From a virus: a stretch of 25,976 nucleotides of DNA. The notes beneath the pieces are model-generated. The model made no database searches. It was not told the DNA's origin and saw only the letters and a program-made list of their open reading frames with translations. The stretch is taken from UHGV virus genome UHGV-1612078. One strand, written 5' to 3'. Both the position numbers and the translations under genes were made by a program. Positions 1 through 4,488 of the stretch are shown piece after piece (position 1 is the stretch's first letter; each line of letters begins with the position of its first letter).

Positions 1-60
1 AGGTAGAGCAACTCACTTGTAATGAGAAGGTCGGCGGTTCGATTCCGTCAATCAGCACCA
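1..60 (+). tRNA. tRNA-Thr (anticodon UGU), 5' end truncated by window edge
   Basis: Anticodon arm actca-cTTGTaa-tgaga (UGU), T-arm ggcgg-ttcgatt-ccgtc, acceptor 3' strand then encoded CCA ending at 60. Window starts in the D-loop. Confidence 0.65.
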
Positions 61-61
61 A

Positions 62-136
62 GGCCCTGTAGCTGGAAGGTTCAAGCAAGCGACTCATAAT
101 CGCCAGATGGTGGTTCAATTCCACCCAGGGCCACCA
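62..136 (+). tRNA. tRNA-Ile (anticodon CAU, lysidine type; AUA-reading)
   Basis: Acceptor ggccctg/cagggcc, anticodon stem-loop gcgaCTCATAAtcgc as I recall for E. coli ileX and T4 tRNA-Ile, T-loop ttcaatt, encoded CCA. Confidence 0.8.
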
Positions 137-145
137 AATTAATTT

Positions 146-232
146 GGGGAGTTATCCCGTAGAGGTAGCGGTGTGGACTGTAAATCCATTGTCATTGCGA
201 CTCGGGTGGTTCGACTCCACCACTCCCCACCA
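146..232 (+). tRNA. tRNA-Tyr (anticodon GUA), class II with long variable arm
   Basis: Acceptor ggggagt/actcccc, anticodon arm gtgga-cTGTAaa-tccat (loop as I recall for E. coli tRNA-Tyr), about 15-nt variable arm, T-arm ggtgg-ttcgact-ccacc, encoded CCA. D-arm pairing is imperfect. Confidence 0.6.
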
Positions 233-236
233 ATTT

Positions 237-311
237 GGATGTGTAGCTCAATGGCAGAGCGATCGCCTGTTAAGCGATTGGTTATAGGTTCGAATCCTAT
301 CACGTCCGCCA
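237..311 (+). tRNA. tRNA-Asn (anticodon GUU)
   Basis: Full cloverleaf: acceptor ggatgtg/cacgtcc (one G-U), D-arm gctc/gagc, anticodon arm atcgc-cTGTTaa-gcgat, T-arm atagg-ttcgaat-cctat, encoded CCA. Confidence 0.8.
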
Positions 312-425
312 AATTTGTGACAACTGTCACATTAATATCTACTTGACGCGATTATAGGGGTTGAACTGATCACTCTTCTCTTAATTTCGTGTGAAGACAT
401 CTTGATTGTTGGAGTAGGTATTAAT

Positions 426-501
426 GTGGCCGTAGTTCAGTTGGTAGAACTCGAGATTGTGATTCTCGTAGTCATGGGTTCGACTCCCATCGGTCACCCC
501 A
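426..501 (+). tRNA. tRNA-His (anticodon GUG)
   Basis: Acceptor gtggccg/cggtcac, D-arm gttc/gaac, anticodon arm cgaga-ttGTGat-tctcg, T-arm atggg-ttcgact-cccat, discriminator C plus CCA. No encoded G-1 is seen. Confidence 0.7.
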
Positions 502-505
502 ATTA

Positions 506-581
506 CGGGGCATAGCTCAGAAGGAAGAGCAAGGACCTTCTAAGTCCTAGGTCGTAGGTTCGATCCCTACTGCCTCGACCA
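506..581 (+). tRNA. tRNA-Arg (anticodon UCU)
   Basis: Acceptor cggggca/tgcctcg, D-arm gctc/gagc, anticodon arm aggac-cTTCTaa-gtcct, T-arm gtagg-ttcgatc-cctac, encoded CCA. T4 tRNA-Arg also has UCU. Confidence 0.8.
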
Positions 582-599
582 ATTATAAGTGAGGAAAAT

Positions 600-950
600 A
601 TGAAAGGTAATGTTTATTTAGTAGTTCATGATTTAACATTCTATTTTAATCATAATGATACTGTTATTTCTGAACGTGTAATTAATTTGCTTTATCAGCA
701 TGCAGATTATGTTTATGTCGAAAACGAATATGGTCATTGGCAATTTCTCAAAAATCGTTCATTTGGTTTAGATGGTTACGAATATTTTGATCGTAAAGAC
801 CTTTTAGATACAATTCCGTTATCTACACAATATCAAAATCATAAGTCTTTACATAAATGCCGGCTAATTCGAAATGCTGAATCCGCGTATGAAGCAATTG
901 ATTTGTGGCGTAAACGCCGTGAATATATTGATTCTTTAAAAGAATATTAA
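600..950 (+). CDS. hypothetical protein (116 aa), first gene after the tRNA cluster
   Basis: Open frame with SD gagg about 8 nt upstream of ATG 600. No motif recognised. Confidence 0.6.
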   Translation: MKGNVYLVVHDLTFYFNHNDTVISERVINLLYQHADYVYVENEYGHWQFLKNRSFGLDGYEYFDRKDLLDTIPLSTQYQNHKSLHKCRLIRNAESAYEAIDLWRKRREYIDSLKEY

Positions 951-954
951 GAAA

Positions 955-1290
955 CCGGGTCGCTACCGGTAAGTCGTCGGACTGATGTTCCCTGGAGTAT
1001 AGTTTCCTCCCACAGTTTTACTGTGTTCTGGCTCTTTACTATCACAGCAGAAACGGCGCACCGAATTATCGATTCGAGGAAATATCTTTGCCGTAAGCCG
1101 AGTAGCGTTTTTGACGGAACGTTCGGATATGGTCGAGATATGGCCTTTTAAAAATATTGAGTAGCGTCAACTACTTAATAACCGGGTTCGAATCCCGGCG
1201 TTTCGTACAAACACTTGCCTTAGCAGGTGGAACCCCGACAAGGTTGCCGCAAGGCTTAGCCCCGACCGAAAGGTTGGGGCTTTTTAGTTT
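955..1290 (+). ncRNA. candidate structured noncoding RNA / tRNA-like element (GC-rich intergenic block)
   Basis: About 420 bp without a convincing ORF in a gene-dense genome. GC looks clearly higher than flanking sequence. Multiple hairpins (accgg-gtcgcta-ccggt; 10-bp stem tattgagtag/ctacttaata). Canonical T-arm ccggg-TTCGAAT-cccgg directly followed by cgtttcg, which can pair with cggaacg at 1113-1119 as an acceptor stem. Ends in a terminator hairpin. Confidence 0.3.
1259..1286 (+). terminator. rho-independent terminator
   Basis: Hairpin gccccgacc-gaaa-ggttggggc followed by a TTTTT run. Confidence 0.6.
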
Positions 1291-1375
1291 GAATCACTCG
1301 GATAACGCTGTTACGGATAGTAACAAAGTAATAAATAATTAATAACCAACCGATAAATTATTTCAAGGATTTTAA

Positions 1376-1939
1376 ATGAAAACCTATGCCGAATTTTTAA
1401 CCGAAGCAGCAAAATTACCATCTGAAGCAGATCTTACTAAAGTATTCTTCCAATTGGACCCAAAAGACCGCGGCGATTTTCTTAAGTGGAAAGCTAAAGC
1501 TATTGAAATGTACAACATCGATAATAGTTCTTTTACAATGAGTCAAGAAAATAAATTCAATAAAGCATTTTTCAAAATTTCTAAGAAATTGGCATCTGGC
1601 GCTCAGGTTCCTAAATCTGTGTTAGCTACTCCTGAACGCGCACCTGTTAAAATTTCTAAGAATATGTTCGACACTAAAAAATACGTTAATGCTTTGAATA
1701 AAGCTCTTGATGCATTGGATGATGCAAAGAAGGCAGCCCGCGATCTTCAAGACGTGTACACCGATTTTGACCGCAAAACTAAAGGTTCTATTTCAAATAG
1801 CGAACGCAATAGTGTAAGTGTTTATTCTGATAGCCTTGATGTTCTTGGCGATGCGTATACTGAAATTAAAAATCGTATTAACACTGCATCTAAGCTAAAA
1901 GCTGCTGCAGAAGCTATAATAAGTAAACTAGGTAAATAA
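1376..1939 (+). CDS. internal-protein-like packaged protein with N-terminal capsid-targeting sequence
   Basis: N-terminus MKTYAEFLTEAA matches the T4 internal-protein capsid-targeting/prohead-protease leader MKTYQEFI(A/T)E. Lys/Ala-rich body. Terminator immediately downstream. Confidence 0.65.
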   Translation: MKTYAEFLTEAAKLPSEADLTKVFFQLDPKDRGDFLKWKAKAIEMYNIDNSSFTMSQENKFNKAFFKISKKLASGAQVPKSVLATPERAPVKISKNMFDTKKYVNALNKALDALDDAKKAARDLQDVYTDFDRKTKGSISNSERNSVSVYSDSLDVLGDAYTEIKNRINTASKLKAAAEAIISKLGK

Positions 1940-3168: not shown

Positions 3169-3783
3169 ATGAAAATGAAAATGCAAAGTGATTTCAATTC
3201 AATGTTTGAAGAGTTCCAAAGACAGGTTGATGTTCCAGACCAATTACTAAATGCTCTTAAACGCATGGCAGAAGGACGTAATTACTATTGGGGGTCTTCA
3301 TATGAAACTGATGAAAGCCTTTCCGGAAGATTTTCTAGAGGTAAAAAGTCTTTAATACGTCCTGGAATACTCATTAACAGTATTGAATCAATTCATTCAT
3401 TGACGTGTGATTTTGATGTTGAATTTACTGATTTCATTTCTCCTGAATGGACGGTTTGTTATTTAAACGACGATTTTGATTATCTCGGTGTTTATAGTTT
3501 AAGTGACGCATGGTTTAAACGTAATTTACAAAAGTCAAATTTATTTTATATTGATACTACTGTAAAATTTCAGGGCAAGAAATATTTCTTTACTCTTATA
3601 GTTGATTCTGAAACGAAGCATGAAAATAAACGTATTCTTAGTAAAAAGAATATCTTAACTATTGTTGATGATCTTTTTGATAAATTTGTAGAAAATCCCA
3701 ATTTTGAAAGTGATTTATTACTAGAAAAATTTGTTAAGGAATGTAGAGAATATGTCAAAACCATCACTATACCTTCCAAGTAA
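3169..3783 (+). CDS. hypothetical protein (204 aa)
   Basis: ORF with SD ggag upstream. C-terminus EKFVKECREYVK shares the junction motif seen in the following tandem genes. Confidence 0.6.
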   Translation: MKMKMQSDFNSMFEEFQRQVDVPDQLLNALKRMAEGRNYYWGSSYETDESLSGRFSRGKKSLIRPGILINSIESIHSLTCDFDVEFTDFISPEWTVCYLNDDFDYLGVYSLSDAWFKRNLQKSNLFYIDTTVKFQGKKYFFTLIVDSETKHENKRILSKKNILTIVDDLFDKFVENPNFESDLLLEKFVKECREYVKTITIPSK

Positions 3784-4144
3784 ACCTGTGAAGTATGAAC
3801 CAAAGCGTCAGCTAATTCCTACTGATATATTAATAGGTCCTGTGACAGCTATATCATTTGTAATTCTATTGATTATTGGAGGTGTTTTAGATGTTATGAC
3901 TGATATTGATTCTGGCGTAATATTTCTGTTAGTATTAATTCTTCCATTAGTAGTTCCATTTTTATTAGTACCTATAAATTGGGTAGGATACTGGTATCAA
4001 GGAAGACACTATCGTAAACGTGTACGTGATTGGAAAGCCCAGTGCAAAAAGATTAAAAAAGAACATCAGCTTAAACTTGATATGTATGAATTTAATGAAA
4101 TTATGAAATTTGTTAAGGAATCACGATGCAAAAGCCAAAATTAA
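3752..4144 (+). CDS. small membrane protein, paralog 1 of tandem array
   Basis: Two hydrophobic segments (AISFVILLIIGGVL; FLLVLILPLVVPFLLV). Start ATG 3752 after aagga. C-terminal motif FVKESRCK. Confidence 0.55.
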   Translation: MSKPSLYLPSKPVKYEPKRQLIPTDILIGPVTAISFVILLIIGGVLDVMTDIDSGVIFLLVLILPLVVPFLLVPINWVGYWYQGRHYRKRVRDWKAQCKKIKKEHQLKLDMYEFNEIMKFVKESRCKSQN

Positions 4145-4488
4145 ATAAAGTCAAATATTCGTTTCCTGAGGCACTATTAATTCTTGCTGTATCAGTATTT
4201 GCAGCTCTTGCGGGTAGTCTTATTGGATTGTTAATTGACTGTTTTATTTTAAACATTGACGGCACAGTAATTATAACAGAGGTTTGGAGTGAACTTCGTT
4301 ATACTATAGCGATTTCATTATTTTCATTCTTTGGTACTATGTTATATTTTCATTATGATAATTTTAAAATAAATTGGCAAAGAAAAAAAGATTACAAAAT
4401 ACAATTAAAAGAATATAATAGCTACATGTCTTATATTGAAAAAGAATCAATGGAAGAGTTTGTGAGTAATTGTAGGAAAATCAAATGA
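4126..4488 (+). CDS. small membrane protein, paralog 2
   Basis: Hydrophobic segments (LLILAVSVFAALAGSLIGLLI; ISLFSFFGTMLYF). C-terminal EFVSNCRKIK. SD aagga. Confidence 0.6.
   Translation: MQKPKLNKVKYSFPEALLILAVSVFAALAGSLIGLLIDCFILNIDGTVIITEVWSELRYTIAISLFSFFGTMLYFHYDNFKINWQRKKDYKIQLKEYNSYMSYIEKESMEEFVSNCRKIK

Follow-up and report, generated by a model that had tools for sequence, protein, structure and literature searches.

The tRNA region of bacteriophage T4 (NC_000866) is an operon in which the upstream genes, from Gln to Thr, are followed by tRNA-Ile, the GIY-YIG homing endonuclease gene segB and tRNA-Arg, with the stable RNAs rnaD and rnaC and a terminator further downstream, and the region is non-essential for phage development (PMC2330249). 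A segB-less allele of this region was described in 2008 by Brok-Volchanskaya et al., who mapped the preferred SegB site (27 bp) to the tRNA-Asn gene of the segB-less phages T2L, RB1 and RB3; SegB cuts in tRNA-Asn, and segB replaces the block (PMC2330249). The segB-less region of T2 (AP018813) and RB7 (KM606997) has the order Ile2/Met(CAU)-Tyr-Asn-Arg, with rnaD and rnaC downstream. In the tRNA cluster of phage T5 (NC_005859, Demerecviridae), RNA III (30284-30389, ~106 nt), which its record calls a 'stable RNA with unknown functions', lies directly 5' of tRNA-His. Here we analysed a window of 25,976 nt, the whole of the available stretch of virus genome UHGV-1612078, with emphasis on positions 1-581. 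These positions very probably represent the distal half of a Tequatrovirus tRNA operon in its segB-less, T2/RB3-type allele, to which a module of a structured leader RNA and tRNA-His is added; no observation contradicts the tRNA and cassette parts of this reading.

Five complete tRNA genes and one truncated gene were identified, all on the + strand. ARAGORN read the anticodons CAT, GTA, GTT, GTG and TCT for, respectively, a tRNA-Ile2-type gene (62-136; 59.9 bits with Rfam), tRNA-Tyr(GUA) with a long variable arm (146-232; 30.3 bits), tRNA-Asn(GUU) (237-311; 74.1 bits), tRNA-His(GUG) (426-501; 65.1 bits) and tRNA-Arg(UCU) of the T2/RB3 allele (506-581; 66.1 bits). The 3' part of tRNA-Thr(UGU), clipped by the window start (1-57), was recognised by Rfam at 40.3 bits as a 5'-truncated match to model positions 16-71; it is near-identical to T4 tRNA-Thr by alignment, and is annotated as tRNA-Thr in the related phages YUEEL01 and fPS-65. 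All six RF00005 scores (30.3-74.1 bits) exceeded the gathering score of 29, tRNA-Tyr scoring lowest because of its long variable arm, as is expected. CCA, which E. coli tRNA genes usually encode and those of T4 only in part, is encoded in all five complete genes. The cloverleaves which an earlier note had parsed for Tyr(GUA), Asn(GUU) and His(GUG) between Ile(CAU) and Arg(UCU) were thus recovered by both programs, with agreement in coordinates and anticodons, and its view that the repertoire is unlike that of T4 was borne out, the added genes being genuine tRNAs.

The tRNA with the CAU anticodon is, as judged from its sequence, of the Ile2 type and not a tRNA-Met. When 5,426 E. coli genomes were searched, the best matches were all annotated as tRNA-Ile (81.6% over 75/75 nt), and its acceptor stem carries both C4-G69 and C5-G68, which we take to be TilS determinants. 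Members of the Ile2(CAU) class have C34 modified to lysidine, decode AUA and accept Ile, and the tRNA of the window would be predicted to do likewise.

The gene order in the window is Thr, Ile2(CAU), Tyr, Asn, leader plus tRNA-His, Arg(UCU), the trna.2 ORF, rnaD and rnaC. The Met/Ile2(CAU)-Tyr-Asn-Arg set of isoacceptors is present and segB is not present in the window, thereby identifying the allele as segB-less. As compared to T4, which has segB in place of Tyr-Asn-leader-His and other alleles of tRNA-Ile and tRNA-Arg, homology stops ~20 nt into tRNA-Ile (window position ~81) and restarts at ~950 (blastn and alignment). The swapped block therefore exceeds the Ile-Arg interval, and the two tRNA genes that bound this interval also differ in allele from those of T4: tRNA-Ile is identical to that of RB7 at 75/75 positions but to that of T4 at only 47/77, and tRNA-Arg at 74/76 positions to RB7 but at 48/79 to T4 and T6. 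The T4 allele of tRNA-Ile is without an encoded CCA, whereas that of the window has one. tRNA-Asn is identical to that of RB7 (species RB3) at 75/75 positions, its last 20 bases being those of T2, and tRNA-Tyr matches those of T6 and RB7 at 86/87 positions each. In contrast to the window, T2 and RB7 do not have the 194-bp module of the ~95-nt leader RNA and tRNA-His between Asn and Arg; in addition, the window differs from T2 in retaining tRNA-Thr and in being without the trna.1 ORF.

Within the swapped block, tRNA-Arg is followed by an ORF of 116 aa (600-950, + strand), the equivalent of T2 'trna.2', which has the same length and the same junctions in T2 and is absent from T4 and RB7. It had no Pfam match, and its sole PHROG match was phrog_3355, a family of unknown function (E = 8e-53). 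Beyond it, homology to T4 restarts at rnaD (blastn, 950-1288, 91%). The homologue of rnaD (species 2 stable RNA; 950-1062, + strand) is identical to T4 rnaD at 97/121 positions and that of rnaC (species 1 stable RNA; 1069-1207, + strand) to T4 rnaC at 138/139, and a terminator of the cluster (1258-1290, + strand) is formed by a terminator-like site at 1258-1281 and a following T run. The earlier note had mentioned stable RNAs in the tRNA region of T4 and had described tRNAs of other identity as occupying the Ile-Arg interval of the window. No stable RNAs are replaced there, as the T4 interval holds segB, and rnaD and rnaC lie 3' of tRNA-Arg in T4 and also here (950-1207). Alignment of the Ile-Arg interval with T4 showed, as that note had required, that the two are not identical, and its proposal of cassette exchange is correct and already published as segB homing (PMC2330249).

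The window is almost identical (99.7-100% over 1-1400) to the Tequatrovirus genomes YUEEL01 (KY290975), HP3, MLP2 and fPS-65, which have 11 annotated tRNAs including Tyr, Asn and His; the annotation of YUEEL01 and fPS-65 reads Gln-Leu-Gly-Pro-Ser-Thr-Met-Tyr-Asn-His-Arg. These genomes differ from the window by an additional 557 bp after position ~1294, where a second paralogous ORF lies between 40-bp direct repeats, and the RNA at 331-425 is annotated in none of them. Positions 1-1400 were matched by 1122 records, 244 of which hold at least 80% in one place, and the whole Tyr-Asn-spacer-His-Arg block is carried by ~190 phage records (187 cover at least 80% of 137-600). The five-tRNA set is therefore an ordinary variant of the T4-family cluster which has already been annotated, and not a discovery.

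From its sequence, the tRNA-Asn of the window is predicted to carry the preferred SegB site at its 3' end. The segB cassette of T4 is a homing element: where a genome has no segB, SegB cuts tRNA-Asn at the 3' end, and repair of the break copies segB along with its flanking tRNA-Ile and tRNA-Arg alleles, leading to deletion of Tyr, Asn and, where present, His. These steps have been published for T4 x T2L, and for the genome of the window we infer them from identity of the target sequence. Since segB homing would explain the difference from T4, the tRNA set would be a polymorphism kept by recombination at tRNA 3' ends and not a lineage-specific invention.

The extra tRNAs probably supplement those of the host. 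Relative to E. coli, codons UAU and AAU are about 2.3-2.5 times as frequent, and His codons stand at 0.9 times the host level. Adaptation to codon usage, as the earlier note had suggested, is thus a plausible explanation of Tyr and Asn and a weak one of His; with His codons not enriched, codon supply does not explain tRNA-His. It is possible, though short of probable, that the extra tRNAs are mainly an anti-defence cargo, which replenishes the host tRNAs that toxins or immune systems directed at tRNA cleave, or acts as a decoy for them. The tRNA-Tyr of T6, which is near-identical to that of the window, has been detected and found functional by experiment, and it rescues T6 from Septu; deletion of the T6 tRNA region leads to Septu sensitivity (PMC13096335). 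As T6 tRNA-Tyr does not itself escape cleavage by Septu, the rescue is a matter of dosage, and SegB-driven amplification is treated in the same work (PMC13096335). The tRNA-Tyr of the window would buffer tRNA-cleaving defences in the way demonstrated in T6. tRNA-Tyr is a target of both Septu and retron-Eco7, and the unraised demand for His codons also fits an anti-defence role. Tyr(GUA), Asn(GUU) and His(GUG) make up three of the four GUN, or queuosine-family, tRNAs, and the clusters of Karamvirus and Jiaodavirus hold all four (Tyr, Asn, Asp and His). This set comprises the substrates of colicin E5-type anticodon nucleases. However, the experimental support concerns tRNA-Tyr only, and the enrichment of UAU and AAU fits plain codon supply; the two roles are not mutually exclusive.

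We consider it unlikely that the difference in repertoire is near-neutral, the tRNAs being dispensable passengers shaped by the spread of selfish segB-type homing endonuclease genes and by recombination at conserved tRNA ends. The non-essential nature of the T4 tRNA region (PMC2330249) would agree with this, as would the variation among close relatives, in which the number of annotated tRNAs ranges from 7 in the T6 record up to 11. Homing endonuclease genes also adjoin tRNAs in T4, T6, Karamvirus CW742 and T5, and the indel junctions share short homologies of the form CCA-AAT. Yet the tRNAs are intact, with full cloverleaves and compensatory changes, as in the variant tRNA-His of L061, and a phenotype of tRNA-Tyr has been demonstrated in T6. 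The module of leader and tRNA-His, moreover, shows 88-92% identity to its Karamvirus and Jiaodavirus copies, which lie in clusters that differ in the remainder and thus in the DNA flanking the module.

The only fresh item of the locus is the leader itself, a conserved, covarying and unannotated structured RNA. This 'His-leader' of ~95 nt (331-425, + strand) was delimited by fold, covariation and covariance-model search, and ends at -1 of tRNA-His. RNAalifold and pair counts define its closing helix P2 of 14 bp (331-344/412-425), within which the fold places P3 (346-351/387-392), P4 (355-360/378-383) and P5 (396-399/407-410), all on the + strand; the minimum free energy of the leader is -32.7 kcal/mol (z = -4.4). 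Covariation was determined by RNAalifold and pair counts on 8 and then on 14 variant sequences from several Tevenvirinae genera. With 14 sequences, P2 was 99.5% paired and 7 pairs of the leader showed compensatory changes, values that none of 500 shuffles reached. For the leader overall, 97.6% of cells were paired, and this fell to 33-49% when the partners were slid by 1-3 columns. Pairing in P2 and P5 is preserved by compensatory changes as the sequence varies. The interior, comprising P3 and P4, occurs in at least 4 unrelated versions across the copies; this speaks against a core that binds a ligand or acts in catalysis, and leaves P2, P5 and the junction as the only constrained parts. A ribozyme, a riboswitch and a decayed tRNA in the spacer were ruled out, there being no ARAGORN or Rfam signal: Rfam 15 gave no family for the spacer, but only chance-level miRNA and lncRNA matches (6-13 bits, E ~4-7).

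The leader was found in 356 phage records. Nearly all of the matches listed carry no feature at that place; in the rest, the annotation is limited to an adjacent tRNA-Gln or to a hypothetical protein. A 15-mer of the leader retrieved 52 loci from IMG/VR, of which 4 were true matches and the others were due to chance, and no second copy of the leader was found elsewhere in the window. In 15 copies the 3' end of the leader lies at -1 of tRNA-His, and in Jiaodavirus and Moonvirus its 5' end lies 1 nt past the CCA of the preceding tRNA. The leader is thus encoded inside the tRNA operon, on the tRNA strand and flush with the tRNA processing sites, as a stable RNA of such a cluster would be. A search of the open-access literature returned nothing on the leader or on phage tRNA-His lacking G-1.

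The closest analogue of the leader is T5 RNA III. Besides its place before tRNA-His, RNA III has a 12-bp closing helix that joins both ends and a small hairpin right before the 3' strand of that helix. No sequence or covariance-model similarity between the two was detected, however, the likeness being one of position and topology only; and the stability of RNA III is taken from the annotation of its record, whereas that of the T4-like leader is a prediction. The T4 RNAs rnaC and rnaD resemble the leader in being structured non-tRNA RNAs of the same operon which are flush with tRNA genes, but differ from it in sequence and in position, as they follow tRNA-Arg; the window contains both of them besides the leader. 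Searches of the T4 and T5 loci with nhmmer and the covariance model found no relative of the leader, neither in T4 rnaC/rnaD nor in T5 RNA I/III. On grounds of arrangement, the leader may be a further member of the phage tRNA-cluster stable RNAs exemplified by T4 rnaC/rnaD and T5 RNA III.

The 114-bp spacer between Asn and His (312-425) also contains gtgacaactgtcac at 317-330 (+ strand), a perfect inverted repeat of 6+2+6 (GTGACA and TGTCAC separated by AC) which as RNA folds into a stem of ~5 bp with a 4-nt loop (minimum free energy fold). About 0.1 perfect inverted repeats of 6 bp are expected by chance in 114 bp by a rough estimate, so this hairpin, P1, is only weakly improbable by itself. 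It is lineage-specific: both arms occur in Gelderlandvirus STP4-a, with a different loop, and the 5' arm is missing from the copies of Karamvirus, Jiaodavirus and Moonvirus. The perfect hairpin to which the earlier note had drawn attention does exist, but it is absent from these three genera, and the conserved feature of the spacer is the ~95-nt structured RNA at 331-425 and not P1. The 3' arm of P1 (GUCAC, 326-330) can alternatively pair with nucleotides 1-5 of tRNA-His (GUGGC, 426-430).

Bacterial tRNA-His has an encoded G-1 which pairs with C73 and is the major identity element for HisRS (PMC9976931). The tRNA-His of the window has C73 along with the GUG anticodon, but its position -1 (425) is T, whereas E. 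coli hisR has G. G426 was taken as +1 because the conserved U then falls at position 8; its assignment as G-1 was ruled out, as this would put A at the position of U8, create a U7-U66 mismatch and yield CCC in place of CCA. By alignment, T at -1 is also present in PX29, mycobacteriophage Alice and T5, where this tRNA-His follows RNA III. T was found at -1 in 12/12 distinct phage tRNA-His genes, most of which had been retrieved by a pattern starting with GTGGC, and no independent tRNA-His genes were found in random IMG/VR loci. C73 was retained, and the encoded G-1 on which HisRS of E. coli depends was absent, in every phage tRNA-His examined; these came from T4-like phages, T5, one Aeromonas phage and one mycobacteriophage.

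The position of the leader is constant, and this suggests a putative role in the maturation of a tRNA-His without encoded G-1. In T4-like phages, T5 and the Aeromonas phage, tRNA-His is preceded by a helix with its 3' strand ending at the 5' end of the tRNA or not more than 3 nt from it, and in Tequatro-, Karam- and Gelderlandvirus the leader helix can extend by 5 bp into the acceptor strand. A further proposal is that the leader and the T at -1 work together as a single device that produces an unconventional tRNA-His. In this proposal the helix would set the place or time of RNase P cleavage, and the resulting tRNA-His, with U(-1) or a shortened 5' end, would be charged in a non-standard way, or would serve as a nuclease-resistant species or a decoy against host defences that target tRNA. 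We regard such a device as distinctly improbable.

Very improbable, finally, is that the spacer is a feature of the DNA, be it a promoter or PeSL-type cassette, a target of recombination or of homing, or a miniature inverted-repeat element, or else a decayed tRNA gene. The spacer does begin with a stem-loop followed by a TTGACG or TTTACT-like hexamer, which recalls the T4-type PeSL cassettes in which a stem-loop precedes an early promoter, TTTACW-N17-TAYWAT (PMC4122927), and the element has 14-bp terminal inverted repeats and travels as a module between genomes. With TTGACG or TTTACT as -35, however, no -10 element was present at N16-18, a promoter scan of 300-430 (+ strand) was negative, and the region varies between copies, the -35-like hexamer being found in only some of them. 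On the + strand, 25/196 cells of P2 are G-U pairs; the opposite strand would have mismatched A-C in their place, or an inverted repeat in DNA would be interrupted by them. The covariance model scored 55-104 bits on the + strand as against 19-27 bits on the - strand. The compensatory changes in P2 and P5 likewise maintain pairing, and ARAGORN and Rfam detected no tRNA-like fold in the spacer.

The segB-less operon with its leader and tRNA-His module thus remains the preferred reading. As no + strand promoter or terminator was found within 1-600, the genes would be transcribed as one polycistronic precursor together with the upstream Gln-Leu-Gly-Pro-Ser genes. From what is known of T4 biology, the tRNAs would be excised by host RNase P and 3' trimming. 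RNase P cleavage at +1 of tRNA-His would most likely free the leader as a blunt-ended, exonuclease-resistant small RNA.

Phages with the allele of the window carry the preferred SegB target, so that mixed infection with T4 or T6 should cost them the block. They also carry tRNA-Tyr, which bears on escape from Septu and from retron-type nucleases that target tRNA-Tyr. The tRNA block, one among a number of well-documented T-even alleles, shows how SegB homing and recombination at tRNA ends reshuffle the tRNA sets of phages, a feature which by itself has little weight. The leader represents an RNA family which always lies against tRNA-His in hundreds of genomes of therapeutic-type coliphages and Klebsiella phages and, along with the absent G-1, it offers a handle on the old question of the purpose of the non-tRNA 'stable RNAs' in phage tRNA clusters.

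ARAGORN and the Rfam tRNA model identified five complete tRNA genes on the + strand, namely tRNA-Ile2-type(CAT) (62-136), tRNA-Tyr(GTA) (146-232), tRNA-Asn(GTT) (237-311), tRNA-His(GTG) (426-501) and tRNA-Arg(TCT) (506-581), all of which scored 30.3-74.1 bits with the Rfam model (gathering score 29). ARAGORN returned exactly the coordinates and anticodons given in the earlier note, and the sequence also has the gap of 114 bp (312-425) that it described, with the repeat gtgacaactgtcac inverted within it at 317-330; the note's observation is correct and non-random. A 5'-truncated tRNA-Thr (1-57, + strand), detected by the Rfam model, aligned with T4 tRNA-Thr. The CAU tRNA was assigned to the Ile2 kind because its top matches in 5,426 E. 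coli genomes are annotated tRNA-Ile (81.6% over full length).

Comparison of gene order placed this arrangement among the T-even phages. The order is Gln Leu Gly Pro Ser Thr Ile [segB] Arg rnaD rnaC in T4, Gln Leu Gly Thr Met Tyr [segB] Arg in T6, Gln Leu Gly Pro Ser [ORF] Met Tyr Asn Arg [351-nt ORF] in T2, and ... Thr Met Tyr Asn Arg rnaD rnaC in RB7 (species RB3), as against Thr Ile2 Tyr Asn [leader] His Arg [351-nt ORF] rnaD rnaC in the window. In T4, the Ile-Arg interval contains the homing endonuclease gene segB rather than stable RNAs, and the stable RNA genes rnaD and rnaC follow tRNA-Arg in both T4 and the window. Nor is the difference confined to the Ile-Arg interval, as similarity to T4 ends at ~81, about 20 nt into tRNA-Ile, and returns at ~950. 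While tRNA-Ile2 and tRNA-Arg share only 47/77 and 48/79 positions with T4, they share 75/75 and 74/76 with RB7, as does tRNA-Asn (75/75), and tRNA-Tyr shares 86/87 with T6. Window 1-1400 matched 1122 phage records and was 99.6-100% identical to many Tequatrovirus genomes, such as YUEEL01, MLP2, HP3, DCP2 and fPS-65; 187 records covered at least 80% of the Tyr-Asn-spacer-His-Arg block (137-600). The complete cluster Gln-Leu-Gly-Pro-Ser-Thr-Met(CAU)-Tyr-Asn-His-Arg is annotated in YUEEL01 and fPS-65, and the arrangement is therefore already in databases.

Downstream of tRNA-Arg and within the tRNA/stable-RNA operon, an ORF of 116 aa (600-950) with a good ribosome-binding site belongs to PHROG 3355, a family without assigned function, and gave no Pfam match. 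It resembles T2 trna.2 in length and junctions, and is absent from T4 and RB7. It is followed by homologues of rnaD (950-1062; 97/121 identical to T4) and rnaC (1069-1207; 138/139), rnaD being far more diverged, and by a terminator (1258-1290) 3' of rnaC. Rfam has no family for either RNA. At 1255-1294, the window is 557 bp shorter than all of its closest relatives (YUEEL01, HP3, MLP2 and others). Their extra DNA (3755-4351 in the compared locus L001) comprises a second ORF (157 aa, PHROG 2280) which is a paralogue of window ORF 1376-1939 and is flanked by a 40-bp direct repeat containing the terminator. Only one copy is present in the window, a deleted form that none of the best matches listed shares.

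As shown by Brok-Volchanskaya et al. 2008 (PMC2330249), phages T2L, RB1 and RB3 have no segB; they have tRNA-Met(CAU), Tyr, Asn and an Arg isoacceptor, along with two ORFs, trna.1 and trna.2. SegB is a GIY-YIG homing endonuclease that preferentially cuts at the 3' end of the tRNA-Asn gene in these phages, and when T4 and T2L infect together, segB takes the place of ~1250 bp in this part of the T2L genome with near-100% efficiency (PMC2330249). The window tRNA-Asn is predicted to carry the SegB target, because it equals that of RB7 from end to end and matches T2 at every one of its last 20 bases. The cassette exchange suggested in the earlier note is thus real, but has already been published as SegB polymorphism (PMC2330249). 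Overall, the interpretation given in the note holds in part. The gene order is a known, annotated allele of the T-even tRNA region accounted for by SegB homing, and the finding as first stated is therefore of low interest. A homing endonuclease gene also lies ~55 nt 3' of tRNA-His in Enterobacter phage CW742 (Karamvirus; locus L060, 1300-2042), resembling segB as an endonuclease insertion at a tRNA 3' end; this tRNA-His has TTTG in place of the encoded CCA.

As compared to T2 and RB7, the single addition in the window is an exact indel of 194 bp that separates Asn from Arg. At this junction, RB7 and T2 have ...GTCCGCCA-AATA-CGAGG, and the window has ...GTCCGCCA-AATT[TGTGAC...GGTCACCCCA]ATTA-CGGGG. 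The added module, consisting of ~100 nt of upstream sequence (the leader) and tRNA-His, is therefore bounded by the CCA-AAT motif, which is found after most tRNAs in this cluster. It is 88-92% identical in Karamvirus, Jiaodavirus and related IMG/VR contigs, where it lies between tRNA-Gln and tRNA-Ser and the remaining cluster is different; thus, it transfers between genera as one unit. The leader can also persist without tRNA-His. Salmonella phage STP4-a retains the leader followed by only GTGG of tRNA-His (locus L059, 1206-1299), and Citrobacter phage Merlin has two copies, the second of which follows tRNA-Asn and is succeeded by ATGG and an ORF (locus L065, 495-600). This second copy, absent from the training set, was recovered by the covariance model at 69 bits.

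The 100 nt upstream of tRNA-His (326-425) was present in 356 phage records. Among the matches listed, nearly all were unannotated at this position, the exceptions naming the neighbouring tRNA-Gln or a hypothetical protein only, and none named an RNA element. The leader RNA folded with an MFE of -32.7 kcal/mol (z = -4.4) into five helices: hairpin P1 (317-330), a 14-bp closing helix P2 (331-344 with 412-425), P3 (346-351 with 387-392), P4 (355-360 with 378-383) and a small hairpin P5 (396-399 with 407-410). The alignment comprised 14 distinct leader sequences, drawn from Tequatro-, Karam-, Jiaoda-, Moon- and Gelderlandvirus as well as four other T4-like contigs (~170 kb). P2 pairing was retained at 99.5%, with both partners altered at three pairs and G-U gained or lost at five, and P5 showed compensatory changes in all 4 of its 4 pairs. 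None of 500 column shuffles matched the observed pairing, which fell to 33-49% when partners were slid by 1-3 columns; an 8-sequence alignment gave the same picture. On the + strand, G-U pairs make up about 13% of P2 cells; read from the complementary strand, these would become A-C mismatches. The covariance model scored 55-104 bits on the + strand versus 19-27 bits on the - strand. These two observations point to selection acting on an RNA from the tRNA strand rather than on a DNA inverted repeat. A PeSL-type promoter was searched for in the spacer and not found, nor was any promoter or terminator signature, and an Rfam search of the spacer gave no match. A ligand-binding or catalytic core was rejected, as the P3/P4 interior occurs in at least four unrelated versions. 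A first result worth recording is that the spacer represents an RNA family, conserved and covarying, that lacks annotation and is tied to tRNA-His.

P1 was confined to Tequatrovirus and Gelderlandvirus. The 3' arm of P1, GUCAC (326-330), is complementary to nt 1-5 of tRNA-His, GUGGC (426-430); by this pairing, which is in competition with P1 and with the acceptor stem, the leader helix reaches 19 bp. For the whole precursor (309-505), the MFE favours the extended helix, which is kept in Tequatro-, Karam- and Gelderlandvirus and not in Jiaoda- and Moonvirus.

G426 was taken as +1 of tRNA-His because U8, an acceptor stem of 7 bp, C73 and CCA are obtained in this register only. The gene therefore has T at -1 (425-426 boundary) and keeps C73, with no encoded G-1, whereas E. 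coli hisR has G at -1. T at -1 also occurs in tRNA-His of T5, PX29 and mycobacteriophage Alice, and in all 12 of the 12 distinct phage genes compared; the T5 record annotates tRNA-His as 78 nt, with the -1 T included. Bacterial HisRS uses G-1:C73 as the major identity element, which as a rule is encoded in the gene (PMC9976931). P2 of the leader ends at this position -1 and may be linked to the missing G-1. We found no paper on missing G-1 in tRNA-His of these phages. The lack of an encoded G-1 in phage tRNA-His, as read from 12 distinct genes, is a second result worth recording.

Codon counts from 47 window ORFs, set against E. coli values, gave 2.3x for UAU, 2.5x for AAU, 2.3x for AUA and 4.5x for AGA; total Tyr and Asn codons were 1.4-1.6x host and His 0.9x. 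Since Tyr and Asn codons are raised and His is not, codon supply is plausible for Tyr, Asn and the classic T4 set, but not for His. The four GUN-anticodon tRNAs, Tyr, Asn and His among them, constitute the substrate set of colicin E5, and all four are present in Karamvirus and Jiaodavirus clusters; a tie of the Tyr, Asn and His set to colicin E5-type substrates is a lead only. An anti-defence role for tRNA-Tyr has direct evidence in T6: Septu cleaves tRNA-Tyr, added T6 tRNA-Tyr rescues T6, and T4, without tRNA-Tyr, is unable to escape (PMC13096335).

The closest precedent for the leader is T5 RNA III (annotated as a stable RNA, NC_005859, 30284-30389), an RNA of ~106 nt that directly abuts tRNA-His on its 5' side and in which a 12-bp closing helix joins the ends and a small hairpin precedes the 3' strand. 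It showed no sequence or covariance-model similarity to T5 RNA III or T4 rnaC/rnaD; the likeness to RNA III is therefore an analogy of position and topology, homology not being demonstrated. In Aeromonas phage PX29, a 9-bp hairpin ends at -1 of tRNA-His. Jiaodavirus has a different ~120-nt spacer (L004 982-1104, L063 683-805) whose closing helix has 16 bp or more (MFE -47 kcal/mol, z = -4.6) and which stops 2-3 nt short of tRNA-Asp. Structured spacer RNAs 5' of particular tRNAs may therefore recur in these clusters. RNase P cleavage at +1 of tRNA-His, together with maturation of the upstream tRNA, would free the leader RNA with fully paired ends, and such an RNA would be expected to resist exonucleases. 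Because of this predicted release with paired, exonuclease-resistant ends, we infer that the leader may belong with the other stable RNAs encoded in phage tRNA clusters.
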